64,000 bases of DNA from Candidatus Uhrbacteria bacterium (GCA_016188425.1 JACPHX010000003.1:18606-82605), one strand, 5' to 3'; shown: positions 8,201-37,000, counted from the stretch's first letter. Program-made: numbers and translations. The notes: a model not told the origin generated them from the letters alone.

Positions 8201-8286
8201 GCGGACGTGGCGAAATGGTAGACGCACTAGCTTGAGGGGCTAGCGGGAGCAATCCCATGAGAGTTCGAGTCTCTCCGTCCGCACCA
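8201..8286 (+). tRNA. tRNA-Leu (anticodon GAG), with CCA encoded
   Basis: Cloverleaf read by hand: acceptor GCGGACG/CGTCCGC, D arm TGGCGAAATGGTAGACGC, anticodon stem CTAGC/GCTAG with loop TTGAGGG, long variable arm, T loop TTCGAGT, discriminator A then CCA. Confidence 0.8.
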
Positions 8287-8613
8287 CAAGAGACGCTGCG
8301 ATTTTTTGGCTAAGATGTCGAAGGACTTCTTGGCCGAAATGAGCAGCGTTTTTTGTTGAAGTTCAAGGTTTGAGAACACCGTTTCGGCGATTGAACGTCG
8401 AACGTGTCCGTCGCCTTCCTCGAAGCGAGAAGCTGCGGTTTTCCCAAAGGTAATAGCTTCGAGAAGAGGTTTGAGAAGAACGGACTTGTCGTGCATCCGC
8501 TCTTGTTTCTGATGGAGCTCGGTGCGTTCGAGCACGAGTTTTTCGCGGTCAGCCTTGAGCTCGTCGGCCGTGATCGCTCCGTCGGCACACAGGTCGCGCA
8601 GCCGCGTGATCCT
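8227..8613 (-). pseudogene. C-terminal remnant of a large serine recombinase (integrase). It overlaps the tRNA-Leu 3' end and is truncated by IS256.
   Basis: ADGAITADELKADREKL...VFSNLELQQKTLLISAKK aligns with the C-terminus of the intact 547-aa recombinase at 14037-15680 (LDGYFTSDEGLSRKNEL...LSSNRELKGQTLLIQA). The N-terminal catalytic part is missing; the reading frame runs into the IS. Confidence 0.5.
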
Positions 8614-9988
8614 GGGTCTGTACAATATTCTGTGTAAATGGCATTTAGATGGATAGCTAACCAATCCTCTATGTCAGACCAATCTATGTCTTCCATGCCA
8701 TCCGTCCCAGCTGTTTCCTCTCGTCCTCCCCGCCGCGTGAGTGCGGAAGAATTCGATGCCCGCATGAAAGGAATCAAGTCCGTGGAAGACGCCCATGCCT
8801 TCATCCGGGAAATGATGGGTTCCACTCTGCAAACCGTGCTTGAAGCGGAACTCACGGATCATCTGGGATACGACAAGCATGACAATGAAGGAGACGGGTC
8901 TGGAAACAGCCGAAATGGGTATTCGGAAAAAACCGTGGAGACGTCTTTGGGAAAGACGGTGCTTGCCGTTCCCCGGGATCGGGAAGGGATGTTCGAGCCC
9001 AGGATCATCCCCAAACACGGACGCAAGACTACCAATGAATTGGAGGACAAGATCATTGCCATGTATGCCCAGGGGATGACCACAAGGGATATCCATGCCC
9101 ACATGCAGGACATTTACGGAGTCGATGTTTCTGCCACCATGGTCAGTACCATCACCGACAAGCTGGAACCCCAGATCCGAGAATGGAGGGAGAGGCCGCT
9201 GGAAACGATGTACCCCATCGTATACCTGGATGGCATCCGGTTTAAGGTGAGGGACAATGGCAAAATGATGAACAAATGCGCGTATTCCGTTCTTGCCTTG
9301 AATATCGAGGGAAAGAAGGAAGTCTTGGGCCTCTGGGTCGCTCAAAGCGAAGGAGCCAAGTTCTGGATGGAGGTATTGAATGAGCTCAAAAACAGAGGAG
9401 TGGAGGATATCCTCATCTGTTGTGTGGATGGTCTCACGGGATTCAACGAAGCCATCGAAGCCGTGTTTCCACAGACAAATATCCAACGCTGCATCGTCCA
9501 TCTCATACGCTCTTCCCTGAAGTTCATCCCCCACAAGCTCAAGGACAAATTCTGCCATGATCTGAAACAGATCTATACGGCTCCCACGGAGGAAGCGGGA
9601 CTGCAGGCGCTCATGGATATGAAGGAGGCATGGAAGGACCACCCTGCTGCGCTGCAGGCATGGGAACAATTCTGGCCGGATCTCTCCACCTTTTTCATCT
9701 TTTCCCAGCCGGTCAGGCGTATCATCTATACGACAAACGCCGTGGAATCCCTCCATCGTCAATTACGCAAAATCACAAAAACAACCTCGACGTTTCCCCA
9801 CGATGAGGATCTCATCAAACTGCTGTACCTGGGGGTCTGGAATATTTCAAAACGCTGGACGGCTCCCATCACGAGGTGGAGCGAAATCCTGGCCCAGCTC
9901 ACCATCCAATTTCCAAACAGAATCAATTTCTCCTAACCCATTTCAAAACCTATCCACAGGCTATTTACACAAAAGATTTGACACACCC
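8614..9988 (+). mobile_element. IS256-family insertion sequence, about 1.37 kb
   Basis: A single Mutator-type transposase ORF. Imperfect terminal IRs with the IS256-like core TGTGTAAAT lie 17 nt from each end: 8614-8639 GGGTCTGTACAATATTCTGTGTAAAT and the reverse complement of 9963-9988. I saw no clear 8-bp target duplication. Confidence 0.8.
8638..9936 (+). CDS. IS256-family (Mutator-like) transposase
   Basis: 432 aa with typical IS256 Tnp blocks: YPIVYLDGIRFKVR, CCVDGLTGF, IQRCIVHLIRSSLKF, YTTNAVESLHRQLRK. Confidence 0.9.
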   Translation: MAFRWIANQSSMSDQSMSSMPSVPAVSSRPPRRVSAEEFDARMKGIKSVEDAHAFIREMMGSTLQTVLEAELTDHLGYDKHDNEGDGSGNSRNGYSEKTVETSLGKTVLAVPRDREGMFEPRIIPKHGRKTTNELEDKIIAMYAQGMTTRDIHAHMQDIYGVDVSATMVSTITDKLEPQIREWRERPLETMYPIVYLDGIRFKVRDNGKMMNKCAYSVLALNIEGKKEVLGLWVAQSEGAKFWMEVLNELKNRGVEDILICCVDGLTGFNEAIEAVFPQTNIQRCIVHLIRSSLKFIPHKLKDKFCHDLKQIYTAPTEEAGLQALMDMKEAWKDHPAALQAWEQFWPDLSTFFIFSQPVRRIIYTTNAVESLHRQLRKITKTTSTFPHDEDLIKLLYLGVWNISKRWTAPITRWSEILAQLTIQFPNRINFS

Positions 9989-10009
9989 GTCACAAACGCT
10001 TCAAACCTC

Positions 10010-10588
10010 GTGACCGGGGCTCAAGACGTAGAGCTGACCCATCGCGGGGTCGAGCAAGCTCGCCAGGTCGGGCGCGAGCTCGACCATGAATACCCAACGG
10101 CCTTCGCTTCGGCGCTTCGGCGGTCAAGAGACACGCTCAGACTTGCAATGGAAGCTGGAAGTGTCGTTGTCGGCAAAGTGCGTTGGGATGAGCGGCTCAA
10201 CGAACGAGGTCTCGGAAAACTTGAGCTTCAGCCCTCCCGCTTCGAACCTGCGTACGCGGCCGGAGATCTCAAGTACGCGCCCGAGGGTGGAGAGTCGTAC
10301 GAAGCGGTGGCGAGACGCACACTCTCTTTCTTGATCGATCTGACCGATCTGGTGAAAGAGTCTCCGGCGGAGACGATTCTCATATGCGGTCACATGGGAC
10401 CGCTGCGCATCCTTGTTGGGATTCTCGACGACGCGGAAGATCCAGTCGTGGTTCTGGCCCGTTCGTTCCCAAACGCGGAAATGATGCGGCTTCGACTCCA
10501 TCAAGTTTCCATACCGCCTTTCCTCGAGGACCTTGCGCGTGTCGGAAGACAAGCTCCCGTTCGCGCAGTCGCGATCGTGGCAGGTTGA
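10010..10588 (+). CDS. Histidine phosphatase superfamily-like protein, possibly degenerate. Start uncertain; IS256 lies immediately upstream.
   Basis: ELTHRGVEQARQVGREL resembles the PGM/SixA N-terminal motif but is non-canonical (THRG rather than RHG). ILICGHMGPLRIL resembles the C-terminal catalytic His region. The track ORF 9803-10588 starts inside the IS, so the true 5' end is unclear. Confidence 0.4.
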   Translation: MTGAQDVELTHRGVEQARQVGRELDHEYPTAFASALRRSRDTLRLAMEAGSVVVGKVRWDERLNERGLGKLELQPSRFEPAYAAGDLKYAPEGGESYEAVARRTLSFLIDLTDLVKESPAETILICGHMGPLRILVGILDDAEDPVVVLARSFPNAEMMRLRLHQVSIPPFLEDLARVGRQAPVRAVAIVAG

Positions 10589-10673
10589 ATCGGTACCTTT
10601 CTCCCGTTTCACCGCACTCTCCCATAATTGGAAGGCATCGACCGAGCGCTTCATCGCCTTGCGTGACATGCTC

Positions 10674-11561
10674 TCTCGATCTCCTCTCCCGCAAGAGATT
10701 GAGACGTTGGCCGCTGCGGGTTCTCTGGGTCGGATGGAAGCTTCCGACGCCTCGGATGGCGACATCATCATTGTCGTGAAGGATGGTACACCGGAGGATC
10801 GAGCTCAAGCAGTCTACGACGATGTCTGGAATCGGCTTGAGGGCGTCGAGCGTCCGAACGCAACCGGCGTGTTCTCGAACCATGCCACAGAGGGTCAGCT
10901 TCACAGTGACAGCGTTGGCGATCCACAAGAGAGCTCCAAGACTTTGGGCAAAAGACTCCTTTTGCTACTCGAGTCCCAACCGCTCTATAATGACGAAGCG
11001 TATTGGAGTCTCATCGAGCGCATCGTTGACCAGTACGCAAAGAACTACGTCGCGTTGGACTCGACGAAAGAGTGGGCATTCCTGATCAACGATTTGATCC
11101 GCTATTTTCGTTCGATCTGCGTATCTTACCAGTTCAGTTTCAACGAGCAGAAGGAGAAATGGGCCCTTCGAAACGTGAAGCTTCGACACAGCCGTCTCAT
11201 CATGTACTCTGGCCTTTTGTTTCTTCTCGGAGAAGCAAGCAAGGAGCGGAAAGACAAAGTCTCGTGGCTCAAGCGCCACCTTCGCTATACACCGCTCGAA
11301 CGCATTGCGCTCGCCTACGACGCAAATGGCGATCGGAGCTTCCACCGATTGATCGGGCTCTACGATGTCTTCCAAGCGGCCCTCAATAGCGAAGTGCGAA
11401 CGAAACTCAACGTTGAGTACGCACATCGGTACGACCACCCGGAGTTCGCGCGCCTAAAGGCGAATTCAGATGCCCTCGTCGCGGAGCTTCTGCGATTCGT
11501 GTTTGCGCGCCAAGCGAACGAAGACTGGAGCGCCCGATTCTTTGAATATCTCATTTTCTAA
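10674..11561 (+). CDS. GlnD/DUF294-like Pol-beta nucleotidyltransferase with a helical C-terminal domain
   Basis: AAGSLGRMEASDASDGDIIIV fits hG[GS]-x9-13-Dh[DE]h. The first ~47 aa of the track ORF look non-coding, so I chose the start at MLSRSPLPQEI. Confidence 0.5.
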   Translation, partial: SRSPLPQEIETLAAAGSLGRMEASDASDGDIIIVVKDGTPEDRAQAVYDDVWNRLEGVERPNATGVFSNHATEGQLHSDSVGDPQESSKTLGKRLLLLLESQPLYNDEAYWSLIERIVDQYAKNYVALDSTKEWAFLINDLIRYFRSICVSYQFSFNEQKEKWALRNVKLRHSRLIMYSGLLFLLGEASKERKDKVSWLKRHLRYTPLERIALAYDANGDRSFHRLIGLYDVFQAALNSEVRTKLNVEYAHRYDHPEFARLKANSDALVAELLRFVFARQANEDWSARFFEYLIF

Positions 11562-11572
11562 AGTTACCGTGT

Positions 11573-12118
11573 ATGCACGACACCTTCGCCCTCTTCGGGC
11601 TCGTCGATGAAAAATCTGGTCGACGGATCGACGCCGCGAGACAGCGTCTCTCTCTGAAGACCGGCAACGACCGCGCACTTCGGTTCCCGCCCCACGTCAC
11701 GATCGTCGGCCGAGTTCGCGCCGAGCGGAGACGCATGAAGGAGGTCGCCGAACCCCTCCTGCTTTCCCTCGCGAGACTGGCCGCTGAGCCGCAAGAACTG
11801 GCGCTCGGTAGCCCGAGTTTCGTTCCTCCAGATCTTCTCTGGCTACCGGTCAGTTCCAGTTCCGTGCTCAAGGGTCTTCACGAGACGGCTAAGGACCGAT
11901 TGGATCAGATAACTGAGGATCTGATGGACCCATCATTTCAGCGCACGGGCTACCAGCCACACATAACCTTGGGATGGGGAGTCACGAGCGACGCCTCGGA
12001 GCCACTACTCGACGCCTCCCTCCCTCGAGTCACGATGGTCGCATTAGCCGTCGCTCTATACCCCGAGACGTGGGAAAATTACGGAAAGGTTCGGGTATGG
12101 CGCACGGCCGAACTCTGA
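11573..12118 (+). CDS. 2H phosphoesterase (LigT/2'-5' RNA ligase-like cyclic phosphodiesterase)
   Basis: Two H-x-T-x motifs about 87 aa apart (FPPHVTIVG and QPHITLGWG) in a 181-aa protein. This is the hallmark of the 2H superfamily. Confidence 0.7.
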   Translation: MHDTFALFGLVDEKSGRRIDAARQRLSLKTGNDRALRFPPHVTIVGRVRAERRRMKEVAEPLLLSLARLAAEPQELALGSPSFVPPDLLWLPVSSSSVLKGLHETAKDRLDQITEDLMDPSFQRTGYQPHITLGWGVTSDASEPLLDASLPRVTMVALAVALYPETWENYGKVRVWRTAEL

Positions 12119-12394
12119 TGCAATCGATTGTTTGCATGTCCGATCCTGCACTTTTCGCGCATCGTCCGCCTACTCCGTCCAGTGGCGCAACGTGTACAGT
12201 TCCAGGCTGCTTCGCAATGCGACCACGCTCGATCATCGAGTTCCATGGTGGTTCGCCCTCCCCGTGTGCATGGACAATCGAAAGGCGACATGGCTTGGAG
12301 TTGCTCGCAGTGACGAGCCAGTGCGAGAGATCGTAACGCAATGGGCCTCTCGGACGATGGATAGGTAACGACCTCCCTTGCGAAAGGACCGAAG

Positions 12395-13126
12395 ATGGCC
12401 AAATCTACGATCGAATGGACGGAGTCAACCTGGAACCCCGTGACGGGGTGTACCAAGATCAGCCCCGGGTGCAAATACTGCTACGCCGAGCGAATGGCGA
12501 AGCGACTTCGAGCGATGGGTCAAAGGAATTACCGTAACGGCTTCCAACTCACCCTCCATCCGCACATGCTCGACCGACCGCTACGCTGGAGGAAGCCGCA
12601 GACGATTTTCGTGAATTCGATGAGCGACCTGTTTCACGCGGAGGTGCCAGTCGAGTACATCCAGCGTGTCTTCGACATCATGTCGCGGGCACACAGGCAC
12701 CGCTTCCAGATTCTTACCAAGCGCTCCGCGCGTCTCGCCGAGGTCAGCCCCAGCCTCCCGTGGCCGGAGAACGTGTGGATGGGCGTGAGCGTTGAAAGCG
12801 CGGCCTACAAATTCCGGAGCGACGACCTGAGAAAGTCAGAAGCCCAGACGAAATTTCTTTCGCTGGAGCCACTTCTGGGTCCGCTCCCGAATCTCGACCT
12901 TCACGAAATCGACTGGGTCATCGTCGGCGGTGAGTCAGGGCCCGGCGCAAGAGGCATCCGAGCGGACTGGGTGACCGATATTCGCGATCAGTGTCTTCGC
13001 GCGAATGTTTCATTTTTCTTCAAACAATGGGGCGGTGTGAACAAGAAGACTACCGGTCGGGCACTGGAAGGAAGGACTTGGAACGAATTGCCTCGCACCC
13101 GCCTTCTGCCCGTCATCACGTCGTAG
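12395..13126 (+). CDS. Phage Gp37/Gp68 family protein (DUF5131)
   Basis: N-terminal [20 protein letters not shown] Cys cluster and overall length match the Gp37/Gp68 family. Confidence 0.6.
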
Positions 13127-13127
13127 G

Positions 13128-13667
13128 ATGCAATCGATTGCATCTGTGTTGGAACGGTCGGAACCGATCCCGAAAGACTGGAACGAGGCAGCGCAAATGA
13201 AACCCAATATTGACGATCTTATCAAAGCTCGCGACGAGGATGAAACAGACCCTAAGAGAATTAGAGAGGAGGTCACCAGAAAATTGTACGAAGAACACCA
13301 TGATCAGTTGGGAAAAAGGATTGCCAGAGTCAAAGCATCAGATCCGGATCTCAATCAAGACGATATTGACGAAATCCGAAGCACCTTCGAAGCATCCCTT
13401 CGAAGGAAACATTCCGCGTACATAAAAGCGGAGACGCTTCGGTCTTTAGATTTACATCAAATCACCAAAACCAAGGCCGATTCGATTGGCAGAATCATCT
13501 TAGCGCTCGAAGATCTGGAATGGAGTCCTCATGATTTTTGGGAGAGGCTACGGGCATCATGGGACACGGAGCAACTCGATAGAGCCATATTTCATTTTGA
13601 GAAAACAGGAGATGTTTCGCCTTTTCGGTATCTCCGTCCACCACGATCTCTCGGTTCAACGAGATAA
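13128..13667 (+). CDS. Hypothetical protein
   Basis: 179-aa ORF starting ATGCAATCGATTGCA directly after the previous stop. Charged and helical, no recognisable motif. The region looks lower in GC than its flanks. Confidence 0.45.
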   Translation: MQSIASVLERSEPIPKDWNEAAQMKPNIDDLIKARDEDETDPKRIREEVTRKLYEEHHDQLGKRIARVKASDPDLNQDDIDEIRSTFEASLRRKHSAYIKAETLRSLDLHQITKTKADSIGRIILALEDLEWSPHDFWERLRASWDTEQLDRAIFHFEKTGDVSPFRYLRPPRSLGSTR

Positions 13668-13929
13668 CGAGGTAGCCGCAACTTTTGTGACCGCGCCTCA
13701 TGTGGTCCATCGCTCACCTACGTGATTTTTGCAAGGCCGAGAACCGGAACGGGATTGGTCTCGCTGTGGAAAGAAGTTCGAACGTCGTCAATACTGGGGC
13801 ACCAGCCGTCGCTCCATCAAGTTTTTATAATTGATGGACCGACGGCTGTCCTCCGTAGCTCGCACCGAGCGAAGGAGGACCTATGTCTTGATCCTGAGAT
13901 GGAGCTATGGCTGGCACGGCCAACAAGGA

Positions 13930-13957
13930 AGACACTTTGAAAGAAGTGTCTTTTTTG
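13930..13957 (+). terminator. Rho-independent terminator
   Basis: agacactt-tgaaag-aagtgtct followed by TTTTTT. Confidence 0.55.
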
Positions 13958-14017
13958 TTTCTTGCCTCCATAAGACTTGCCCACCTGTCCCATTCCCGTT
14001 AGCATGTCCGTGCCCAC

Positions 14018-14094
14018 GGACGCTTAGCTCAGCCGGTTAGAGCGACTCGTTTACACCGAGTAGGCCGCAGGTTCGAATCCTGCAGCGTCCACCA
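14018..14094 (+). tRNA. tRNA-Val (anticodon TAC), CCA encoded
   Basis: Acceptor GGACGCT/AGCGTCC, D arm GCTC-AGCCGGTTA-GAGC, anticodon stem ACTCG/CGAGT with loop TTTACAC, T loop TTCGAAT, discriminator A then CCA. Confidence 0.85.
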
Positions 14095-15680
14095 TAAAGA
14101 ACTTCTTCATTTTTGGAGGAGTTTTTTGTATTTGCGACAAGTGCTTTTTCCGCTAAAGGAAAGACTTTTCCGAGTACGTCCCCACCATTTGGCTCGTGGT
14201 TCAACAGCAACTTTTGAGCTTGAATCAAATAATTGGCTGCTTTCAATTTTTCAATCGCAGGAATGGCTTGAATTAGCAGAGTTTGACCTTTTAGCTCGCG
14301 GTTCGAACTTAAAACGTTCAATACTTTTCTTTTGACCAAAGGATTGAGTTCTTTGAATTTAAACGGAAGATAATCGAAGACCTGAATCATTTCCATGGTG
14401 AGCTTCCAGAGGACATCTTCCTTCACATCTTCCATCTCGCCAATTTGAAGCCGCAGCGCGTGACGCAGTTCGGTAAGCTCATTCTTGCGAGACAAGCCCT
14501 CGTCAGACGTGAAGTAACCGTCCAGAACGGCTTTGTTGAGTTTTTCAAGCTGTTGATCAATTTGACCGAGCTTCAAATCCAAAGCTTTGCGTTTTGCCTG
14601 ATTATCAACGCGAATCTTGGAAGATAAACGAGCAATGGCCTCTTTGGCATAAACCATGAATTCATCGGCCAGCTCGTACTTTGCCAGATACGCAATGATT
14701 TGATCCTCAATGCGATCCTCACGAATCGTTTGGCGACATTTTGGGTTATGGCACTCAAGATATGTATGGGCTTTGTGGATAGAAGAAACCAAAAAACGAC
14801 CGCACTCACACTTAATCATTTTGGCGTAAGTGAAGTCGTGCAGCACTTTATTTTTTTGAGTTCTTCCATCCAAAATTTCCTGAACCTGATCAAAGAGCTT
14901 TTTGCTGATGATGGTGTCTTGATTACCTTCGTAGAAAGTAGGCTCCGTAGCCCCCTTCTTTTTCCACCGCAACATTCCGTGATAAAAAGGATTTCGAAGC
15001 ATTATATAAAACATGCTCTGGCGAATCGGGTTGCCGCTCGTATTTGTCATGCCACGCTTTCGCATGTATTCGCACAGTGTCACCGCTGAATAGTTGCCAG
15101 TGGCAAACAGTTCGAAGCTCTCCTTCACAAAAGGGGCAACCTTCGGGTCGAGCTGTTTCTTTTTGTGATCCTCGTCAACGCCTTTAATACCGCTTCGATA
15201 ACCGATCGGTGGCGGAGCTGGAAAATATCCCCTAAGTAAACACTCTTCCATTTTTGTACTGACTTCCTCCGACAGGTTTTCCGAATACCAGACAGCCATG
15301 TTACAGAAATTGCGGAAAGCCAGACGCCCTGCGGCACGGCTCGTATCAAATTCGCCCTCGATCACGATCATCTTCTTTTTATTCTTCGTGACCATTTGAT
15401 CAAGTAATGCGAAGTCGGCGACGTTTCGAGAGCTGCGATCCAATTTATGAAAAATAACCCCTTCTATTTCAGGGGTTGAGAGACGTTCAAGCATTGCAGT
15501 GAACTGCGTACGCTTTCCTTTGAAGCCAGATTTGGCCTCGCTGTACCATTCCACGATTTCACATTCCTTGCGCTCTGCGTATTCAGTGATAATGCGTTTT
15601 TGAGCAGGTAGAGAATTGTCCATCTCGGCCTGCGCTTTTGTGGAAACGCGACAATAGGCTACATACTTCTTCATAGGCAT
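14037..15680 (-). CDS. Large serine recombinase (phage integrase)
   Basis: N-terminal resolvase domain with catalytic Ser (VAYCRVSTKAQ), a recombinase domain, a zinc-ribbon region (CECGRFLV...CHNPKC), and a coiled-coil C-terminus. The last ~57 nt overlap tRNA-Val. Confidence 0.9.
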   Translation of the reverse strand: MPMKKYVAYCRVSTKAQAEMDNSLPAQKRIITEYAERKECEIVEWYSEAKSGFKGKRTQFTAMLERLSTPEIEGVIFHKLDRSSRNVADFALLDQMVTKNKKKMIVIEGEFDTSRAAGRLAFRNFCNMAVWYSENLSEEVSTKMEECLLRGYFPAPPPIGYRSGIKGVDEDHKKKQLDPKVAPFVKESFELFATGNYSAVTLCEYMRKRGMTNTSGNPIRQSMFYIMLRNPFYHGMLRWKKKGATEPTFYEGNQDTIISKKLFDQVQEILDGRTQKNKVLHDFTYAKMIKCECGRFLVSSIHKAHTYLECHNPKCRQTIREDRIEDQIIAYLAKYELADEFMVYAKEAIARLSSKIRVDNQAKRKALDLKLGQIDQQLEKLNKAVLDGYFTSDEGLSRKNELTELRHALRLQIGEMEDVKEDVLWKLTMEMIQVFDYLPFKFKELNPLVKRKVLNVLSSNRELKGQTLLIQAIPAIEKLKAANYLIQAQKLLLNHEPNGGDVLGKVFPLAEKALVANTKNSSKNEEVLYGGRCRIRTCGLLGVNESL

Positions 15681-16204
15681 TATTTTGATTTAGAAGGCTT
15701 TTTCTTACCCTTCGGAATGCTCTCGCCTTTATTAATGACCGCATATAGCTCCAAGAGCTTCTCTTTTTCGTCTTTTTCAAGTTCAAGAATACGCAAAATC
15801 ATATCGCGCTCTTCCTTGTCCTTCTGCATGATCTCCTCGATCAGGCGCTTCGTGTCTGGATTCACAACCACATTATTGGCATGGCCGTTCACGATAACGT
15901 TTGAGTCACCGCCTCCAGCCAAAATACCACTAGCCTGAATCAGCGAAGAAAGCTCATCGAACTTCTTGGCTTTTTCGGCAAACGCGGTCAATTCAGGGTT
16001 ATCTTCCCCGAAAAAGTAAGAAAGGGGCTTTTGAAGAGCCTTGGCAACGTCGGGCACGTATTTCTCGGGGTTCTTGATAAACCCGCTTTCGACTTTTTGA
16101 ATTGTGTTGGAAACCGCGCCGATCTTGCGAGAAAGCTCCATCTGGGACATCCCAGCTTCCTCTCTCGCCCGAATAATGCGGTTAACGATGGCATTTAGAG
16201 ACAT
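15680..16204 (-). CDS. XRE-family HTH transcriptional regulator, likely the CI-like prophage repressor
   Basis: N-terminal HTH (GMSQMELSRKIGAVSNTIQKVESG). Divergent from the early + strand genes and adjacent to the integrase. Confidence 0.75.
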   Translation of the reverse strand: MSLNAIVNRIIRAREEAGMSQMELSRKIGAVSNTIQKVESGFIKNPEKYVPDVAKALQKPLSYFFGEDNPELTAFAEKAKKFDELSSLIQASGILAGGGDSNVIVNGHANNVVVNPDTKRLIEEIMQKDKEERDMILRILELEKDEKEKLLELYAVINKGESIPKGKKKPSKSK

Positions 16205-16328
16205 GTGAGTAAAGGTTAATGATTAAAGAATAAAGGCAATGTTCCCGTTCTGTATTGAAGTATAGGAAAGATTAGAATAATAGTCAAGACTAATAACGGA
16301 AAGTTATCAACAGTCATACCAATTTTTC

Positions 16329-16356
16329 TTGACAATCTATTCTAAAAGAGTATGAT
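16329..16356 (+). promoter_or_regulatory. Sigma70-like promoter in the divergent lysogeny switch region
   Basis: TTGACA - 16 nt - TATGAT, about 90 nt upstream of the Cro-like ORF. The intergenic region is AT-rich. Confidence 0.4.
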
Positions 16357-16444
16357 GAACAGTGAAGGAACAGGAAGATGGCTTAGAATGCATATATTTT
16401 TTACCTCCAACTGTTCCGAAATGGAATAACTAACTTGTAAGAAA

Positions 16445-16672
16445 ATGGGCAGACCCTACGCAACAACTTCAGAAACTAGACAAAAAATGTGGGCGCTTTG
16501 GCTCAAAGGCTTCACGTTTATTGAGATTGCCCGCCAATTTAAAACTTACCGTCAAAAGACAAGGTCGATTGTCCTTGCCTACGATCCCACGTTTGAACAA
16601 TTCAAGCAGCACGACGAAAACCGTCGGATCAGGCAAATGGCGGGAAAGCTTTCCCCTAACTTAAATCCATGA
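16445..16672 (+). CDS. Small putative DNA-binding protein (Cro/excisionase-like)
   Basis: 75 aa, basic, with a possible HTH (WLKGFTFIEIARQF). First gene of the rightward early operon. Confidence 0.45.
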   Translation: MGRPYATTSETRQKMWALWLKGFTFIEIARQFKTYRQKTRSIVLAYDPTFEQFKQHDENRRIRQMAGKLSPNLNP

Positions 16673-28453: not shown

Positions 28454-30718
28454 ATGGCAAAAGATTCAAACAATAAAACGGTCGAAACATTTGAAAAGCA
28501 ACTTTTTAAAGCTGCAGACAAACTACGCAAAAATATTGATGCTGCAGAATACAAGCACGTTGTGCTCGGCCTTGTTTTTCTTAAATATATTTCGGACTCC
28601 TTCGAAGAACTCTACAACAAATTGAAGGAAGGCAAGGGCGAATACGAAGGCGCTGACCCAGAGGATCAAGACGAGTACCGTGCTCAGAATGTTTTCTGGG
28701 TGCCACAAAATGCTCGATGGTCTTACCTCCATTCTCGTGCAAAGCTTCCAACGATAGGAACTGATCTCGATGAAGCAATGGAACTTATCGAGAAGGAGAA
28801 CCCAACCCTAAAGGGCATTTTGGCAAAGGTCTATGCAAAACCGAATCTTGATAAAGCTGCGCTTGGCGGACTGATTGACCTAATCAGCAATACTGCGCTT
28901 GGAAGTGAAGCTGCGAAGTCAAAAGATCTTCTCGGCCGAGTCTATGAATATTTCCTCGGTGAATTCGCTAATGCTGAAGGTAAAAAAGGCGGACAATTCT
29001 ATACACCGAAAGCAATTGTAAGACTGCTGGTTGAAATGATTGAACCATACAAAGGGCGTGTATATGACCCTTGCTGCGGATCAGGCGGGATGTTTGTTAT
29101 GAGCGAAAAATTCGTACTCGAACATTCTGGGCGTCTCGACGATGTATCTATTTACGGACAAGAAAGCAATCAAACCACATACAGATTGAGCCGTATGAAT
29201 ATGGCTATTCGCGGTATTGATGGTTCACAAATCAAATGGAACAGCGAGGGTTCATTTTTGAAAGATGCACATCCTGATTTGAAAGCAGATTATATTATTG
29301 CAAATCCTCCATTCAATCAGTCTGACTGGGGGCAAGAAATACTGCGAAACGATCCTCGTTGGCAATTCGGGCTTCCTCCTGCAAGTAATGCCAATTTTGG
29401 CTGGATGCAACACATGATTTACCACCTTGCTCCCCACGGAGTAATGGGTCTTGTTCTCGCAAACGGCTCGTTATCATCCAACTCCTCTGGGGAGGGTGAA
29501 ATTAGACAACGAATGATCGAGGCGGATTTAGTCGATTGCATAGTAAGTCTTCCTACTCAACTTTTCTATAATACTGGAATTTCGGCATGCTTATGGTTTA
29601 TATCTAGGAAACGCAGTGGCAATGGTGATCGTAAACGTACAGGAGAAATACTATTTATAGATGCGAGTGAAATGGGTCACATGATTGATAGCACCCATCG
29701 CGAATTTACTGACGCTGATGTTGCTAAGGTATCTAGTATTTATCATGAATGGAGAAAGGACGGAGGAAGTTATAGCGATGAAAAGGGATTGTGTAAATCA
29801 GGCTCAATTAAGGATATCGAAAAACATCACTTCGTGTTGACTCCAAGTCGATACGTTGGAGTGGCAGATGATCAGAATAGCAAGATACCCTTTGAGTTTC
29901 AAATTGAAAATCTGAATAAATTCGGCAAGGAGCAAGCTAGAATTGAATCAATATTAAATCAGGAAATAATTGAAAGTATTAAATATTTCTGCCCAAATTA
30001 CGATTGGGCGAATACCAATTTTTTGTCTACTGAAATCTTAGAACAAATTACACAGATGCTGTTCAAAGAATGGTTTCTCGAATTCAATTTTTTGGATGAT
30101 AACGGAAAACCTTATAAAAAAAGTGGTGGGGAGATGATAGAAAATGATTTCGGCCTGATTCCTAAAGGATGGAGTATTGGGAAAGTCGGAGAGATTATTG
30201 ATATTTTTGATTCACAAAGAATCCCGTTGTCTTCACGAGAAAGAACGAAGCGTAAAGGTGAATACCGCTATTACGGGGCAACGTCAATAATGGATTATGT
30301 GGACGACTATTTGTTTGAGGGAATCTATCTCCTTTTAGGAGAAGACGGATCGGTTATCGATGATAAAGGATATCCAATCTTGCAGTATGTTTGGGGGAAA
30401 TTTTGGGTCAACAATCACGCGCATGTTTTGCAAGGTAAGAATGGTTACAGTACAGAGATGCTTTATTTGCTTTTCAAAAACACGAGAGTGGCTGGCATTG
30501 TTAACGGCGCCGTGCAGTTAAAAATTAACCAAGGGAACTTACTAGGTTTGGAGATCGTTATTCCTGAGAGAAAAATCCTAGATACCTTTTGTGAAAAAAT
30601 TTCTCCAATTTTTAAGAAAATTAGGTTCATGCACGACCAACTAAAAAATCTTGCATCAATCAATAAAAATGAAGAGCCTCAGTACGTTGAAGGACAGAGT
30701 AAAACTAATATTTCATAA
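28454..30718 (+). CDS. hsdM: Type I restriction-modification HsdM (N6-adenine MTase) fused to an HsdS-like target-recognition domain
   Basis: HsdM N-domain (HVVLGLVFLKYISD), motif I DPCCGSGGMF, motif IV IIANPPFN. The C-terminal ~300 aa carry an HsdS TRD-like region (KGWSIGKVGEIIDIFDSQRIP...). Confidence 0.85.
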   Translation: MAKDSNNKTVETFEKQLFKAADKLRKNIDAAEYKHVVLGLVFLKYISDSFEELYNKLKEGKGEYEGADPEDQDEYRAQNVFWVPQNARWSYLHSRAKLPTIGTDLDEAMELIEKENPTLKGILAKVYAKPNLDKAALGGLIDLISNTALGSEAAKSKDLLGRVYEYFLGEFANAEGKKGGQFYTPKAIVRLLVEMIEPYKGRVYDPCCGSGGMFVMSEKFVLEHSGRLDDVSIYGQESNQTTYRLSRMNMAIRGIDGSQIKWNSEGSFLKDAHPDLKADYIIANPPFNQSDWGQEILRNDPRWQFGLPPASNANFGWMQHMIYHLAPHGVMGLVLANGSLSSNSSGEGEIRQRMIEADLVDCIVSLPTQLFYNTGISACLWFISRKRSGNGDRKRTGEILFIDASEMGHMIDSTHREFTDADVAKVSSIYHEWRKDGGSYSDEKGLCKSGSIKDIEKHHFVLTPSRYVGVADDQNSKIPFEFQIENLNKFGKEQARIESILNQEIIESIKYFCPNYDWANTNFLSTEILEQITQMLFKEWFLEFNFLDDNGKPYKKSGGEMIENDFGLIPKGWSIGKVGEIIDIFDSQRIPLSSRERTKRKGEYRYYGATSIMDYVDDYLFEGIYLLLGEDGSVIDDKGYPILQYVWGKFWVNNHAHVLQGKNGYSTEMLYLLFKNTRVAGIVNGAVQLKINQGNLLGLEIVIPERKILDTFCEKISPIFKKIRFMHDQLKNLASINKNEEPQYVEGQSKTNIS

Positions 30719-30726
30719 TAATTCTT

Positions 30727-31251
30727 ATGGCAGAAATTTTTCAAAGTATCATAAATTTTTTTAACCACCCTGTCTTCATTATTGTTGGAGGTGTCACTGT
30801 TACCTTGGGTTTTCTTGGAATTATCTACAAAATACTTTGCTGGACTTTCGGGATCACTCCTATCGTCATCAGATTAGGCATCGCTTTATGGAAAAGAAAG
30901 GTTGCTATTTTTGGATCAGCTGATGCATACGCAAGCCTAGAGGCAACCCTTACTGATTCTGGAATATTTAAAAAATCAATCCACATTACTTCTGATAATG
31001 TTGATAAAGCTAAGAGCGAAACGATCTTCCTAGTGGACTGGGAAACATTCGGCGACAAAATAGATCAGGTATTCACCGCTAGAACCAACCACCAAACGGC
31101 AATTGTTATTTTTGCAAAACCAGCAAGCATTCCGAACGATAAAATGGCCGACATAGCCAATCGTGCAAATACGGTTGTCGTAAATTTTAGAGGACGTCTT
31201 TTGAACGATATTCTGACCTCATTAATTACAACGAGTTATGAAAAGAACTGA
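30727..31251 (+). CDS. Hypothetical protein with an N-terminal TM segment
   Basis: VFIIVGGVTVTLGFLGIIYKILCWTFGITPIVIRLGIAL is hydrophobic. The gene overlaps the downstream NTase gene by 14 nt, suggesting one operon. Confidence 0.45.
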   Translation: MAEIFQSIINFFNHPVFIIVGGVTVTLGFLGIIYKILCWTFGITPIVIRLGIALWKRKVAIFGSADAYASLEATLTDSGIFKKSIHITSDNVDKAKSETIFLVDWETFGDKIDQVFTARTNHQTAIVIFAKPASIPNDKMADIANRANTVVVNFRGRLLNDILTSLITTSYEKN

Positions 31252-32560
31252 GTTTAATACAAAATTCCGCCAGCACACACGAGAAAAACTTTCTCCTACA
31301 CAAAGAGAGAAAGATTTTGTTAGCGCGCTGTATGCAGAATTACAAAAGGTGCTTGGTGTAAATAATTGTATTCAAATCGGTTCATATCCAAGATTCACTG
31401 CTCATACGCCGCTTCACGACCTAGATGTGTTGTATTTTGCTGGGCAGTACGACCCTCGCGGAGTAAATCCAACAAATATTCTCAGTGATTTGAAAAAAGC
31501 CATTGATAGAGACTTTGTTAACCCGACCAGTTACAACGTGAGTTCTTCTCTCCAAACGCATTCTGTCACAATGAGTTTTGCCTCTAGTGGTCAGGAAGTA
31601 TTTGCAATTGATATCGTCCCTGCATACATTTCTGAAACAAAAAATGAATTCGGAGACGATACTTATTGGGTTCCTGAAATAATGACAGTGGGACATTCGA
31701 AACGTAAATCAATGTACGAGCAGCACTTGAGGGATCATATGGCGATTGAATGGATCAAGTCTGATCCACGAGGCTATATTAAAGTCGCTCAGGAATTAAA
31801 CTCTCAAAATGACGATTTCCGAAAAGCCGTGAAATTCGTTAAGGCGTGGAAACATGGTTGCAAAAAAATAGACGATACTTTCAAACTGAAATCTTTTCAT
31901 GTTGAGCAGATAATTACACAATATTTTCAGCAAGATAGTAGTCTCGATCTGATAGGTGCAATCTTTAAATTCTTTTGTGATCTTGAATCAATTATTTCTC
32001 AACCTCAAATTCGCGATCGAGCAAATTCCACGAAATATATTGATGATTATTTGAATGAATTAAATCCCGAACAAAAACGTAAAATACTGGAAGCTCGAGA
32101 CTTCTTCATGAACAAACTCGAAAGGCACACGGAAGCCTCACCTATGCCGATACTACTCGTGGGCGGTTTTTATGAACGGAAGAGTGATTCTGAACAATTC
32201 CTATACGACCTTAGCATCCCCACTTTTATCGAGGATCAATACGATTTTGTCGTGGATGGTAAGGTTGAAAAAAAAGATGGATTTAGGGGTGGTTATTGGT
32301 TGAGTGAAAACCAAGACAAGGCTCCGACTGGATTAAAGATTTATTTCCAATTAAGAAAAGATAATACAGGCGCTCCACTCTGTAAGTGGAAGGTCAAAAA
32401 TCACGATAATTGTGAACAACCACGCGGAGAACTAAATGATCACAGAACGAGGAATCATCCTGAATCTACAGCCTACAAAGGTGAACATTATGTCGAATGC
32501 TATGCCATTAAAAATGGGGCATGCGTGGCACGACATAAACGCAGTGTAATAATCCATTAG
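31238..32560 (+). CDS. Pol-beta superfamily nucleotidyltransferase, cGAS/DncV/OAS-like candidate (CD-NTase-like)
   Basis: IGSYPRFTAHTPLHDLDV (GS-x11-DxD). Third acidic position EVFAIDIVPA. The helical-domain motif KAVKFVKAWKHG resembles the hhKhW of OAS/cGAS-like enzymes. Family assignment is tentative. Confidence 0.55.
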   Translation: MKRTEFNTKFRQHTREKLSPTQREKDFVSALYAELQKVLGVNNCIQIGSYPRFTAHTPLHDLDVLYFAGQYDPRGVNPTNILSDLKKAIDRDFVNPTSYNVSSSLQTHSVTMSFASSGQEVFAIDIVPAYISETKNEFGDDTYWVPEIMTVGHSKRKSMYEQHLRDHMAIEWIKSDPRGYIKVAQELNSQNDDFRKAVKFVKAWKHGCKKIDDTFKLKSFHVEQIITQYFQQDSSLDLIGAIFKFFCDLESIISQPQIRDRANSTKYIDDYLNELNPEQKRKILEARDFFMNKLERHTEASPMPILLVGGFYERKSDSEQFLYDLSIPTFIEDQYDFVVDGKVEKKDGFRGGYWLSENQDKAPTGLKIYFQLRKDNTGAPLCKWKVKNHDNCEQPRGELNDHRTRNHPESTAYKGEHYVECYAIKNGACVARHKRSVIIH

Positions 32561-32564
32561 TCTT

Positions 32565-34076
32565 ATGAAAACTTTACAAATCCCATCGCCAAATTCTGGA
32601 GGAATGACCTCTCTCTCAATTGAGAAGAGCTTAGTTGTTGTTGGAGCGAATGGATCTGGAAAAACACGATTTGGTTCTAAAATTGAACAATCAAATAACC
32701 CTTCAAAAAGAATTTCTGCACAAAGATATTTACAGCTCAACGAAACAGTTCAGAAACAGGACTTTGAGACGGCTTTCAACCAATTGAATAGTGGCTATAA
32801 GAATCAGTCACCCATTCAACCACAGAACGACTATCAGCAAGTACTGGTATCACTTTTTGCTCAGGAATCACGAAGAAACGAAGAGGTTGTGATGACTATT
32901 CAGCAAAAAGGAAGCGTCTCAAAGGAGAGCCTTGCAAAATCCATCAAAGAACAGGTGGTTGAAGTTTGGAACTTTGTTTTCCCATACCGAACATTAAAAT
33001 TAGAAAAAGATAGGATTCGTGCTGTTAGCGAGTCGGGCGAATTCTCTGGAGCCGAAATGAGCGATGGCGAAAAGGTTGGGTTATATTTAATTTCCCAGAC
33101 GCTTTTAGCAGAAAAAGATTGTTTACTTATCATCGATGAGCCTGAACTTCATTTGCACAAGGCTTTAATGGTGAGGCTTTGGAATAAACTTGAAGAATAT
33201 AGAAAAGACTGTGCCTTTGTTTATATAACCCACGATCTTGATTTTGCTGTTAGTAAACCATCAAGCAAATTGATCTGGATCAAGAGCTTTCAGAATTCAA
33301 CATGGAACTGGAATGAGTTAGAAGCCAATGGAATCATTCCAGAAAATCTTTATCTTGAAGTTCTTGGTAGTAGAAAATCAATACTGTTTGTAGAAGGAGA
33401 AAAAGGCTCATTGGATGCGCAGATTTACCAAGCATACTATGATAATTTCACAGTTATCCCAAGAGGGTCGTGCGAAAAAGTAATCGAATCGGTTAAGGGG
33501 CTGAGAGAGAATGCGGGCTTGCATGACAAGCAAGTTTTTGGATTAATCGATCGAGATTTCCGCTCCGAAGAACAGATTCAATCTCTACAAGCTGATAGCG
33601 TATTTAGCATTTCTCTTAACGAAATAGAGAATCTTTTTTTGCTACCAGAGGTAGTTCAGTTAGTCTGTGATCACCTTTCCAAATCAGACAAAAAAGAGGA
33701 GATATTCTCTCAGATTAGAGGACATTATGAGACCAATAAGGAGCAGATAAATTTTGCTGCATCGAAATTTTCTATTCAACGCATGTTGAATGAAAGATTT
33801 GGTTCAGTAAAAAACCAAGAACAGTACAACAGCTTCAAGGAAACTATTGTAACTGAAATGGACAAGCTATTGTCATCGGGAACGCTTCCAGAAAAAGATG
33901 CTGAAATAATTGAAATATTGAAGATATATCCTCACAAGGGGCTTGTAAGGCAGGTGCAAACAGTGATCGAACTCTCAAAAAATGGATTTACAAACCTCGT
34001 GCTAAGTTTTCTCTCCTCTGACAAGCGACAGAATCTTATCGAGATTTTGAAATCACATTTTCCAGAAATTAAATAA
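32565..34076 (+). CDS. OLD/PARIS-like protein: ABC-type ATPase fused to a TOPRIM/DUF4435-like nuclease domain
   Basis: Walker A GANGSGKTR, signature-like MSDGEK, Walker B LLIIDEPELHLH, H-loop YITHD. C-terminal ILFVEGEKGS (Glu), GLIDRDFR (DxD) and EIENLFLLPE are typical of OLD-family TOPRIM / DUF4435. Confidence 0.65.
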   Translation: MKTLQIPSPNSGGMTSLSIEKSLVVVGANGSGKTRFGSKIEQSNNPSKRISAQRYLQLNETVQKQDFETAFNQLNSGYKNQSPIQPQNDYQQVLVSLFAQESRRNEEVVMTIQQKGSVSKESLAKSIKEQVVEVWNFVFPYRTLKLEKDRIRAVSESGEFSGAEMSDGEKVGLYLISQTLLAEKDCLLIIDEPELHLHKALMVRLWNKLEEYRKDCAFVYITHDLDFAVSKPSSKLIWIKSFQNSTWNWNELEANGIIPENLYLEVLGSRKSILFVEGEKGSLDAQIYQAYYDNFTVIPRGSCEKVIESVKGLRENAGLHDKQVFGLIDRDFRSEEQIQSLQADSVFSISLNEIENLFLLPEVVQLVCDHLSKSDKKEEIFSQIRGHYETNKEQINFAASKFSIQRMLNERFGSVKNQEQYNSFKETIVTEMDKLLSSGTLPEKDAEIIEILKIYPHKGLVRQVQTVIELSKNGFTNLVLSFLSSDKRQNLIEILKSHFPEIK

Positions 34077-34083
34077 TAAATCT

Positions 34084-37000
34084 ATGACTCACATCTACGA
34101 ATCAGACGTCGAACTACTGGCTATAGAAACCCTAGAATCACTTGGGTACGGCTATCTTGCACCCGAAGTCCAAGAAGCAGAACGCCAAGGGCTTACTGAG
34201 GTAGTTTTGAAGGATCGGCTTATTAGCGCCATCGCCAAGATCAATCCGAAGGCAACAAACGATGCTCGTCAGCAAGCGCTCCGTGCCGTTTTGAATATGC
34301 CAAGCCAAAACCTCATTGATAACAATGAGGCGTTCCACCGCATGCTCACCGATGGCGTGGAGGTTGAGTCCTATGCAAACGGTGAAACAAAAGGCGACAA
34401 GATTTGGCTTGTTGATTTTGAGCACCCAGAAAACAATGAATTCCTCGTCTGTAGCCAGTTCACTGTAATGCATGACAATAACCATAAACGTCCAGACATC
34501 GTCCTGCTTGTGAACGGTTTGCCGCTCGTAGTTATCGAGCTCAAAAACCCTACGGACGAAAACGCTACGGTCAAAAAAGCTTTCACACAGCTACAAAACT
34601 ACAAGACGGCCGTGCCTCAACTGTTCAACTACAACGGCATTCTCGTGGCGTCTGATGGACTCGATGCAAAAGCAGGTTCACTGACTGCCTCCTTTTCCCG
34701 TTTCCTCGCGTGGAAAACCATTGATGGTGTCAAAGAAGATAAAGTTACCATTCCGCAAATGGAGACGTTGATCAATGGAATGCTCCGCCCAACCGTACTA
34801 CTTGACCTCATCAAACAATTTACGGTTTTTGAAAAAAGCAAAAAGGAAGATGCTGTCACGGGCTTAACCCAGATCGAAACTGTAAAGAAAATCGCTGCAT
34901 ATCACCAATATTACGCCGTTAATAAAGCGGTCGAATCCACTCAGGGAGCAGCCAGCGAAAAAGGAAGCCGAAAAGCTGGTGTGGTTTGGCATACGCAAGG
35001 ATCTGGAAAATCGTTATCGATGGTTTTTTACGCAGGCAAAATTGTTCTAACGTTGAAGAACCCCACAATCGTTGTTATTACCGACCGTAACGATCTCGAC
35101 GACCAGCTCTTTGATACTTTTGCGGGTTGCAAACAGCTTCTGCGTCAAGACCCAGTGCAAGCGGAAAACCGTGGACAACTCAAAGAATTACTCAAGACCT
35201 CTGGTGGCGGCATCATCTTTACCACCATTCAAAAGTTTTCACCTGAAGATGGGTCTACGGTGTTTGACATGCTCTCCGATCGCAAAAATATTGTAGTCAT
35301 CGCTGATGAGGCACATCGCAGTCAATATGGATTTGGAGCGAAGACGCACATTAAGGATGGTGAAGCGCACACGAAATACGGGTTTGCTAAATACCTACGT
35401 GATGCTCTTCCAAGTGCGTCCTTCATTGGATTTACTGGAACGCCAATCGAAAAAGAAGATGTTTCTACGCCTGCAGTATTTGGCCACTACATCGATGTAT
35501 ACGATATCGAGCAGGCCGTTGAAGACGGTGCAACTGTTCGAATTTACTATGAATCACGATTAGCGCGAGTTCACCTCAAAGAGGAAGAGGCAGCTAAACT
35601 CGATGCCGAAGTTGAAGCGCTCACTGAAGGCGAAGAATCTACATCAAAAGATAAGGCCATGGCTAAATGGACTCAGCTTGAGGCCATTGTTGGGCATAAA
35701 GATCGCCTGAAAATTATCGCCAAAGATATTGTTGATCACTTCAGCAAACGTCAGGAAGTCTTTGAGGGTAAAGGAATGATCGTGGCCATGAGTCGCCGCA
35801 TTGCTGTTGAATTGTACGAAGAGATTATCAAACTGAAACCTGAATGGCACAGTGACGACAAGAAAAAGGGTGTGATTAAAGTCGTCATGACTTCCAGTTC
35901 TAGCGACCCAGAAAACTGGCAGAAACATCACACCACCAAACAGGAACGCAAAGAACTTGGCGATCGAATCAAGAATCCAAATGATGAGCTTCAATTGGTG
36001 ATCGTTCGTGACATGTGGCTTACTGGCTTCGATGCGCCGTGTCTCCACACCATGTACATCGATAAAGCCATGGAGGGACACAACCTCATGCAGGCGATTG
36101 CCCGCGTGAATCGAGTATTTAAAGATAAACCTGGTGGTCTTATCGTAGACTACATCGGTATTGCCTCCGATCTTAAAACCGCGCTTGCTACCTACACCGA
36201 AAACGGTGGTCAGGGTGCACCAACTCTTGATCAAGCAGACGCCGTTGCAACCATGCTCGAAAAGTTCGAGGTCGTTACTCAAATGTTCGATGGCTTTGAA
36301 TATCGGCCATATTTTACGGCCAATACCAAAGCAAAAATGACAACCATTCTCGAGGCGCAAGAATTCGTGCTCGGTCTTGATGACGGCAAAAATCGTTTCA
36401 CCAAACAAGTAGGACTTCTCTCAAAAGCTTTTGCCCTTTCGGTGCCAGATGAAAGAGCCATGGAGATCAAGGATGACGTCGCATTCTTTCAGGCCGTAAA
36501 AGCACGCCTCACAAAGTTTGAACCGACCGATGGCGAACGGAGCGATGATGATATCGAGACAGCTATTCGCCAAATCGTGGACAAGGCTGTAGTGGCCGAG
36601 GGCATGGTTGATATCTTCGATGCTGCAGGTATTAAAAAACCTGACATCTCCATTCTCTCCGATGAGTTCATGGAAGAAATTAAGGGCATGGAACGTAAGA
36701 ACCTCGCGCTGGAACTCTTGAAAAAGATTCTTGGTGATGAAATCAAAAGCCGAGGAAAGAAAAACTTCATTCAGAGTAAGAAGCTTTCTGAGATGCTCGA
36801 GATGGCAATTAAGAAGTACCAAAACAACCTTCTTACTGCAGCGCAAGTTATTGATGAGCTTATTAAGCTGGCAAAAGATATCAAAGAATCTGATGCGAGA
36901 GGCAGCGGACTCGGACTCAACAGCGATGAAATTGCTTTCTACGATGCCTTGATGATCAATGGAAGCGCCATGGCCATTCTTGGCGATGACAAGTTGCGTG

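Follow-up and report, generated by a model that had tools for sequence, protein, structure and literature searches.

The window analysed here was a 64-kb stretch of DNA (one strand; positions counted from its first letter) from a Candidatus Uhrbacteria bacterium (GCA_016188425.1, JACPHX010000003.1:18606-82605). The genomes best matching the integrase, together with the flanking host genes, place it in Candidatus Peregrinibacteria. ARAGORN called exactly two tRNA genes in it, both on the plus strand: tRNA-Leu(GAG) at 8201-8286 and tRNA-Val(TAC) at 14018-14094. A gene of the large serine recombinase (LSR) type ran on the minus strand into the 3′ end of each: (i) the integrase of an apparently complete prophage at tRNA-Val and (ii) the severed remnant of an older recombinase at tRNA-Leu. 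Both tRNA genes were intact, tRNA-Leu with its CCA encoded, and their prediction in an earlier sequence-only reading survived a covariance-model scan, in which Rfam RF00005 rescored them at 55.4 and 74.1 bits, respectively, against a gathering score of 29.

The integrase gene (14037-15680, minus strand; identified by Pfam and 115 homologues) encoded 547 amino acids (aa) in its prophage form. It displayed the Pfam domains Resolvase (PF00239, 7e-24, residues 7-146) and Recombinase (PF07508, 1e-15, residues 179-273) and the catalytic motif YCRVSTKAQ, with R11 and S13 nearly invariant across 58 homologues. A zinc ribbon with embedded coiled coil is suggested by the Cys motif CECG...CHNPKC plus, in an AlphaFold2 (AF2) model, beta strands (298-320) and long helices (339-444); PF13408 (zinc ribbon) gave no match in this integrase, though it is recorded for many homologues. 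By every sequence feature testable, the enzyme is an LSR, and open reading frame (ORF) and Pfam domains agreed with the earlier claim of an intact 547-aa enzyme overlapping tRNA-Val at 14037-14094. Residues 1-529 were phage encoded, while residues 530-547 came from tRNA-Val antisense: the final 18 codons (GGRCRIRTCGLLGVNESL) plus the stop were the reverse complement of 14037-14094. At its other end, the integrase start overlapped the stop of a helix-turn-helix (HTH) repressor-like gene (15680-16204, minus strand; ORF scan, HTH_3) in an ATGA (15678-15682); int is therefore probably co-translated with the repressor, and the short integrase form in lysogens would probably be made together with it. 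Divergent promoter-like sites (promoter scan) were located at 16259-16366, with a 75-aa cro-like ORF beyond them (16259-16672 region); no candidate directionality factor was identified.

The prophage body was siphovirus-like and about 41.5 kb long (14095-55640 by GC content and PHROGs; 14095-55646 including the attR core). GC content went from about 0.56 outside to 0.37-0.53 between 14.1 and 55.6 kb, and PHROGs recognized genes for RecT, ParB-methylase, large terminase, portal, major head protein, tape measure, tail proteins, and amidase endolysin. The att sites were inferred from comparing the prophage-end junctions: attL and attR shared the core CCACCA, at 14089-14094 and 55641-55646, respectively. 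At tRNA-Val, this core spanned the end of the acceptor stem (its last two bases), the discriminator, and CCA, the tRNA gene itself making up the B arm of attL. The two cores being identical, the crossover dinucleotide must lie inside CCACCA. An attR predicted earlier near 55.5-55.8 kb thus exists, its core being followed by a terminator hairpin at 55649-55675. Rejoining attR and attL gave the predicted attP junction ...CGCGTTAATGACCCCCCACCATAAAGAACTTCTTC..., and the predicted attB junction of the empty site was ...CTGCAGCGTCCACCAAAAACACCCAGGA....

Identity between attL and attR was 6 bp only (a 9-bp core was seen in the related locus L022; see below). Neither tRNA 3′ part recurred in the window at ≤3 mismatches, no long direct repeat flanked the prophage, and Rfam gave no tRNA-like match at attR; the lack of a repeated tRNA fragment fits a serine rather than a tyrosine integrase. 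These ends bear on the notion that another recombinase made the tRNA insertions and that the serine recombinase genes are passengers at element ends. Tyrosine integrases are the textbook expectation for tRNA-inserted elements (PMC4383910), but the prophage ends showed neither displaced tRNA fragment nor long direct repeat, a 6-bp overlap is typical of serine integrases, an LSR gene abutted a tRNA or transfer-messenger RNA (tmRNA) gene in 21 independent loci, 17 of them in the same CCA frame, and the 5-bp box offset (see below) is specific to LSR att sites; a passenger role is accordingly very improbable.

When the left side of attR and the right side of attL were rejoined in silico, the integrase continued in frame for 54 further codons (GGGSLTRLEPLTKWLPQIVEEVVLGIKEYFASVDLVPYQQLCQHFAEKTARLLK, then stop), giving a protein of 583 aa; because the rejoined ORF stays open through the core, attP lies inside the integrase gene. 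The detached integrase 3′ end was located at 55484-55645 (minus strand; stop at 55481-55483) and, in the reconstruction, joins codon 529 in the excised phage. The cut fell after residue 529 of 583, past all recognized domains. An AF2 model of the reconstructed 583-aa protein showed the expected domains (mean pLDDT 84), a disordered segment at 499-545, whose codons lie in hairpin, core, and P arm, as well as two helices (543-582; pLDDT about 50-73).

The detached piece has counterparts in relatives. A search of the 54 residues against 1.8 billion representative proteins returned eight matches, six of which were short proteins of relatives, 43-96% identical and with conservative replacements. 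An equivalent tail was contained in the full-length recombinases P0031, P0043, P0045, P0046, and P0052, and contiguous long forms without a tRNA were found at the loci L060, L061, L016, L019, L070, and L071. Among 17 aligned non-tRNA tails, 16 were open for at least about 31 codons, the estimated chance per tail being about 0.23. A second complete split was seen in L022 (CAYWBW010000001.1; a Peribacteria metagenome-assembled genome), in which the recombinase enters tRNA-Pro at 11461 when TGA is read as sense; its 9-bp core (AATGGTCGG) recurred 8.2 kb upstream, with a hairpin before it and an in-frame 48-codon ORF after it. A tail hidden Markov model (HMM) built from the C termini of P0043, P0045, P0046, and P0052 matched one of the 458 six-frame ORFs of L022, namely, the 48-codon one (E=8e-8); the detached far-end piece is thus homologous to the recombinase end in uninterrupted relatives. 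The L022 bin, labeled Peribacteria, seems to use a Gracilibacteria-type code: with the standard code, L022 2500-11600 displayed two ORFs of ≥90 aa in 9 kb, and reading TGA as sense opened the recombinase and others; its integrated element was only 8.2 kb. Extra searches with the reconstructed C-terminal query and with the remnant query (see below) gave a few dozen candidates each and added little. A viral contig with an 85% identical integrase (L056/L005; IMGVR_UViG_3300029288_005650) stopped 26 nt before the expected core, possibly because the assembly broke at the point of divergence between integrated and excised forms.

Codon changes within the tail differed along its length. Compared to L062 and L069, the first 32 tail codons had 0-1 changes, while 67-69 of 241 codons differed in the neighboring lysin gene; the last 22 tail codons had 6-7 synonymous and 2 non-synonymous changes. 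This pattern indicates that the proximal tail is constrained as DNA and the distal tail as protein. The first ~96 nt past the core (55549-55645) were identical or one base off in the three phages (window, L062, and L069); this conserved stretch exceeded the ~25 bp of an LSR half-site, and the lysin genes differed in 28% of codons.

The 54-codon attR ORF might instead be an independent small gene, e.g., a directionality factor, and not the integrase C terminus. A TTG start would yield a 47-aa ORF, a GGAGG-like sequence precedes an in-frame GTG within the ORF, and gene callers give short versions elsewhere (P0117 and P0120-P0122). Against this, no internal start codon is conserved among the homologues, the frame is continuous with the integrase on reconstruction, the equivalent tail belongs to full-length recombinases in the five relatives named above, and the ORF comes immediately after a strong bidirectional terminator, which makes its expression in the prophage unlikely; a separate gene is judged improbable.

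The same arrangement was widespread among relatives. A convergent tRNA or tmRNA gene was found at the LSR 3′ end in 21 of 50 related genomic loci, mostly from Peregrinibacteria, Peribacteria, Gracilibacteria, and other groups of the candidate phyla radiation (CPR), with Ala, Met, Pro, Ile, Glu, Leu, and Cys tRNA genes and tmRNA genes as targets. The LSR ORF crossed the tRNA or tmRNA end in 19 of the 21 (the ORFs of L018 and L021 were shortened, and that of L022 crosses only with TGA as sense), and the frame relative to CCA was the same (..xxT GGT GGN) in 17. The earlier observation that integrase coding sequence continues into the tRNA was borne out: the ORF runs on because attP lies inside it. 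The tRNA-derived tails at these 19 loci were 2-19 residues long, often being stopped by a TGA in the T-loop: their length depends on how soon the antisense strand of the tRNA happens to offer a stop codon, and the tRNA-encoded tail is a by-product. Across the homologue set, at least 56 of the 115 proteins ended in a tRNA-antisense peptide, while homologues without an adjoining tRNA carried another tail after the same [ND]G[GRW] position. In the window, the overlap is one local instance of a wider and apparently undescribed habit of this serine-integrase clade. Distant recombinases (22-28% identity), among them P0106 (from the actinomycete Lentzea sp.), P0111, and P0102, also had tRNA-antisense ends (..RGLEPLT.., ..GFEPT..), and the habit may reach well beyond CPR bacteria.

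The arms of the att sites were then compared, with box positions numbered from the T opposite the final A of CCA. On the tRNA side, the T-loop box (in tRNA-Val, GGTTCGAATC at 14070-14079) placed a GAA (GGATTCGAACC or GGACTTGAACC, integrase strand) at +21 in 18 of 19 arms, as tRNA geometry dictates. On the phage side, the P arm of attP (55596-55640) contained a T-loop-like box, GGTTCCAATC, at 55617-55626, whose distance from the core exceeded that of the real tRNA-Val T-loop box by 5 bp, and a look-alike GAA was found at +26 in seven phage-side arms: those of the window (GATTGGAACC), L060, L061, L019, L066, L022, and L070. The P arm reads as a tRNA 3′ half (GCG-GTTCCAAT-CGC, then core) with five extra base pairs. 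For a Listeria integrase, the zinc-ribbon motif lies 5 bp nearer the center in attB than in attP, and the same has been argued for others (Rutherford et al., PMC3783163); as judged from the putative boxes, the difference between +21 and +26 is exactly this attB/attP zinc-ribbon offset. In the attR junctions of L063-L065, the 30-nt pattern of the P arm was identical and similarity extended to about 45 nt, while the downstream genes differed. A GGAG/GGAA was seen by eye about 20-23 nt from the core of the P′ and B′ arms in the closest relatives and not in others.

The second insertion lies at tRNA-Leu, which is the attL-side target of an old element. The LSR remnant was located by family HMM and BLASTP at 8227-8619 (minus strand; enclosing ORF, 8227-8664) and overlapped tRNA-Leu at 8227-8286; it was composed of about 109 codons (the coiled-coil end plus the second half of the zinc ribbon) followed by 19 from tRNA-Leu antisense. 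It was 30% identical to the integrase C terminus over 96 aa (BLASTP E=1e-7). When the window's 1185 six-frame ORFs were all compared with a family profile of 58 recombinase members, only the integrase (3.5e-238) and the remnant (E=1.3e-12) were matched, the next ORF having E=0.05; the remnant matched profile positions 373-483 of 528, in register to the zinc-ribbon end (SNLELQQKTLLISA). The homology claimed earlier between integrase and the fragment over tRNA-Leu was upheld by these alignments. It could still be coiled-coil noise with a coincidental tRNA-Leu overlap, given that the aligned region includes a low-complexity, helix-rich part, that Pfam finds no recombinase domain in the fragment, and that no close homologue of the fragment was retrieved; since the profile match stays in register to the zinc-ribbon end, has no rival in the window besides the integrase, and belongs to a fragment ending at the tRNA CCA like the rest of the family, noise is scarcely credible. 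The linker from zinc-ribbon end to core was short (KKSFDILAKKSQRLL|W), as in the tmRNA-targeting L046 and L051. The remnant enters tRNA-Leu one base out of the family frame (TTG TGG TGC, not xxT GGT GCG; 8287-8300), through either a pseudogene indel or a subgroup difference.

At 8614-8619, the old recombinase gene was cut off from its 5′ three quarters by a 1.37-kb IS256-family insertion sequence (IS) element (8614-9988, plus strand; transposase ORF at 8638-9936, Transposase_mut PF00872, 8e-112), whose 37-nt terminal inverted repeats (8614-8650 and 9952-9988) were imperfect (76% complementary). No 8-9 bp target duplication was found at the IS (flanks ...GTGATCCT and GTCACAAA...), and the gene on its other side was also 5′-truncated, its His_Phos_1 match beginning at profile position 12. 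Together, the missing duplication and the truncation of both flanking genes point to an insertion plus an adjacent deletion. Of the earlier statement that an IS256 had replaced the rest of the second integrase, the truncation by the IS was confirmed, while a simple insertion was not, a deletion being involved too. The element resembles the IS256 family in its Mutator-type transposase, length of about 1.37 kb, and imperfect terminal inverted repeats, but differs from a typical IS256 insertion in lacking the 8-9 bp duplication and having both flanking genes truncated.

Between the IS and tRNA-Val, a stretch of host-like GC content (0.56-0.59; 9989-14017, plus strand; Pfam, PHROGs) contained the 5′-truncated histidine phosphatase gene, a 342-aa unknown, a 2′-5′ RNA ligase-like gene, a DUF5131 gene, and a 179-aa unknown; possibly, these genes are cargo that remains from the old element. 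For the tRNA-Leu element, no right boundary (attR) was found. One candidate, CCAACAAG plus a strong hairpin/T-run at 13929-13960, 60 nt upstream of tRNA-Val, was not convincing, its match to the tRNA-Leu junction (CCACAAGAG) being weak; this hairpin could be the original downstream flank of tRNA-Leu and thus the far end of the decayed element.

On these alignments, the two recombinases of the window are distant relatives within one broad LSR clade, not one element family. Elsewhere, window-type P arm and tail were fused to recombinase remnants of 35-117 codons (L062:1-420, L069:560-1000, and L067:3291-3761), representing three different recombinase 3′ ends; these most likely represent new prophages that inserted next to a tRNA, between it and an older element in decay. 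If that reading is true, an old attL, with its tRNA arm and a foreign P′ arm, would serve this integrase as a target. The suggestion that the tRNA genes serve as a reusable landing pad for one element family is hence kept for the landing pad, chiefly on account of L062, L069, and L067, and given up for the single family in view of the 30% identity.

Taken together, we consider it probable that one broad LSR clade uses tRNA and tmRNA 3′ ends as attB, accounts for both insertions in the window, carries attP within its own ORF, and finds its targets through the T-loop. Of this, the adjacency to tRNA genes across the family, the junctions, the splitting of the ORF in two complete cases, and the 5-bp box offset (one arm per site) stand firm. 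Several observations weigh on the other side. (i) A free circular phage genome with the joined ORF was not found: pattern scans of viral contigs with the predicted attP junction and the 30-nt P arm gave no match, nor did the tail protein profile against viral contigs, and L060, L066, and L070 had no terminal overlap as a sign of circularity. (ii) An empty attB was not seen, the other contigs with host flanks also carrying a prophage end or being too short. (iii) The window-type tail HMM did not match P0031 and others (E>0.03), and in L063-L065, another ORF, equipped with a ribosome-binding site of its own, came behind the shared P arm. (iv) The box lay at +27, not +26, in four Acidobacteriota-type arms, and inspection of the P′ and B′ arms by eye gave no convincing matching motif, which leaves the box in one arm per site. 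(v) P0116, P0123, and P0124, in which a window-type tail is joined to an LSR C terminus, were not intact genes.

The last three were initially taken as free-phage attP forms and dropped, the gene being broken upstream of the fused LSR piece; L062 (55 kb, ~14 kb more than the 41.5-kb window prophage) also counts against a free-phage reading of such fusions. P0116, P0123, and P0124 are best read as attR ends of prophages beside older 3′ recombinase remnants. A single conserved C-terminal domain across the clade was unsupported, conservation being found at subgroup level only.

In this clade, attP lies within the integrase ORF, roughly 30-55 codons before the natural stop, and integration therefore cuts the gene. 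The prophage copy keeps its catalytic and DNA-binding domains, loses the ~54-aa tail to attR 41.5 kb away, and reads instead into the tRNA antisense up to a chance stop; excision restores the longer ORF (583 aa here). According to the targeting mechanism proposed, the zinc-ribbon domain would read the DNA of the T-loop box (GGTTCGAATC in tRNA-Val), a box that almost every tRNA and tmRNA gene has at a set distance from CCA, and the copy in the phage arm sits 5 bp further out as expected of an attP-type LSR half-site. The recombinase domain would read the acceptor-stem bases between box and core and thereby choose the tRNA used. With the box kept and the acceptor-stem readout changed, it would become clear why one clade has such varied tRNA and tmRNA targets.

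What the split does to the enzyme is a separate matter. It may be real and without functional consequence, the tail being dispensable on a flexible linker and the real job of this DNA being att site plus terminator. Several features agree with this: the tails are not detectably homologous across the clade, a different ORF follows the same P arm in L063-L065, the tails read from tRNA differ in length (2-19 residues), the linker at 499-545 is predicted to be disordered, and the first ~30 tail codons are conserved as DNA, not protein. The distal window-type tail speaks against it, being conserved as protein down to 43% identity with no internal start and changing mostly at synonymous positions (6-7 versus 2), as do the second tail type (conserved enough for HMM detection), the 16 of 17 tails open for at least about 31 codons, and the predicted helical tail; we rate a split without consequence at only slightly below an even chance. 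More tentatively, the position of attP could act as a built-in directionality or state switch, in which the helical tail of the 583-aa integrase made by the free phage would favor integration or block excision, and the 547-aa form, the only one open to the prophage and co-expressed with the repressor, would be excision-competent or primed. This is a possible but rather unlikely outcome; if true, the DNA state would do part of the job of a separate directionality factor.

Right after the tRNA CCA, the P′ arm region of the phage formed a hairpin plus U-run (14094-14129, plus strand; RNAfold -17 kcal/mol), inside the integrase coding sequence of the opposite strand. The same hairpin was found with paired changes in L006, L007, L008, and L011, while in other relatives a hairpin lay 25-50 nt further on, within the codons for EKAFP..EKA. 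At the other end, on the B′ side of the original attB, the hairpin at 55649-55675 (terminator scan; RNAfold -21.5 kcal/mol) bore T-runs on both sides and looks like the native bidirectional terminator once common to tRNA-Val and a convergent diacylglycerol-kinase gene (55840-56586, minus strand). The phage hairpin and U-run would stand in for the displaced tRNA terminator, with integrase codons doubling as terminator.

Inside the prophage, a low-GC island (0.37-0.42; 28454-37200) with defense-type cargo was located between the portal and capsid genes: (i) a type I restriction-modification system with an HsdM-HsdS fusion (28454-30718) and HsdR (34084-37200), (ii) a SMODS/AGS_C nucleotidyltransferase-like protein (31238-32560), and (iii) an AAA_21+DUF4435 fusion (32565-34076) resembling a fused PARIS-type pair. 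A type I restriction-modification system likewise adjoined the related recombinase in L071.

The window integrase was also compared with known systems. It resembles the phiC31, Bxb1, and A118/LI-type integrases in its Resolvase and recombinase domains and in a putative zinc ribbon, rich in Cys and interrupted by a long coiled coil; short core, absence of long repeats, and an attP motif 5 bp further out are likewise shared with these phage LSRs (PMC3783163). Unlike them, it targets tRNA and tmRNA 3′ ends, not a protein-coding gene or intergenic site, and its attP lies inside the ORF, so that phage and prophage proteins differ. With the SSV1-type "suicidal" archaeal integrases it shares attP in the integrase gene, a tRNA target, and partition of the gene on integration, integrase and att site forming a compact, exchangeable module in both (PMC8371274). 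The SSV1 type consists of archaeal tyrosine recombinases (Phage_integr_3) split between N-terminal and catalytic parts into two inactive pseudogenes, whereas here a bacterial protein with Resolvase and Recombinase domains loses only a ~54-aa tail after the known domains; the window integrase works like the SSV type in gene partition at a tRNA and is not a member of it. Tyrosine-integrase islands at tRNA and tmRNA genes (Islander signature) likewise land at a tRNA 3′ end, leave the tRNA intact, and accrete in tandem, but they differ in the displaced tRNA fragment, which is absent here, where identity is 6-9 bp only and the phage arm is a T-loop look-alike plus 5 bp rather than a true tRNA 3′ half.

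In the mycobacteriophages BPs, Brujita, and Charlie, Broussard and colleagues reportedly described in 2013 an integration-dependent immunity, in which attP lies in the repressor coding sequence and integration truncates the repressor. The likeness is an attP in a lysogeny-module gene whose C-terminal form is set by the DNA state; there, the cut gene is the repressor, the integrase is of the tyrosine type, and the functional consequence has been shown, while here it is the integrase gene that is cut, as read from sequence.

Serine integrases have been said not to use tRNA genes (PMC4383910), a 2026 survey found that serine-integrase proviruses prefer coding sequences (PMC13626063), and self-splitting of an integrase gene has been reported as a feature of archaeal tyrosine integrases alone (PMC8371274). 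Among the tycheposons, 27 elements carry an LSR, with no mention of tRNA use by these in the text consulted. No earlier description of tRNA-targeting serine integrases or of CPR prophage integrases was found in the searchable open literature, where the window integrase is the first case we could find of a bacterial serine-type integrase with its own gene cut by integration.

Serine integrases are workhorses of large-cargo genome engineering, and a clade docking at tRNA and tmRNA genes changes the picture of an enzyme class without tRNA targets. It points to integrases whose landing pads, the near-universal T-loop/CCA ends, already exist in every genome, and the two natural isoforms (583 versus 547 aa) make the question of directionality directly testable. 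For CPR bacteria, where genetic tools are lacking, the analysis provides precise prophage borders and att sites, and the proposed readout would explain how such phages move among Val, Leu, Met, Ala, Pro, Ile, Glu, Cys, and tmRNA targets.

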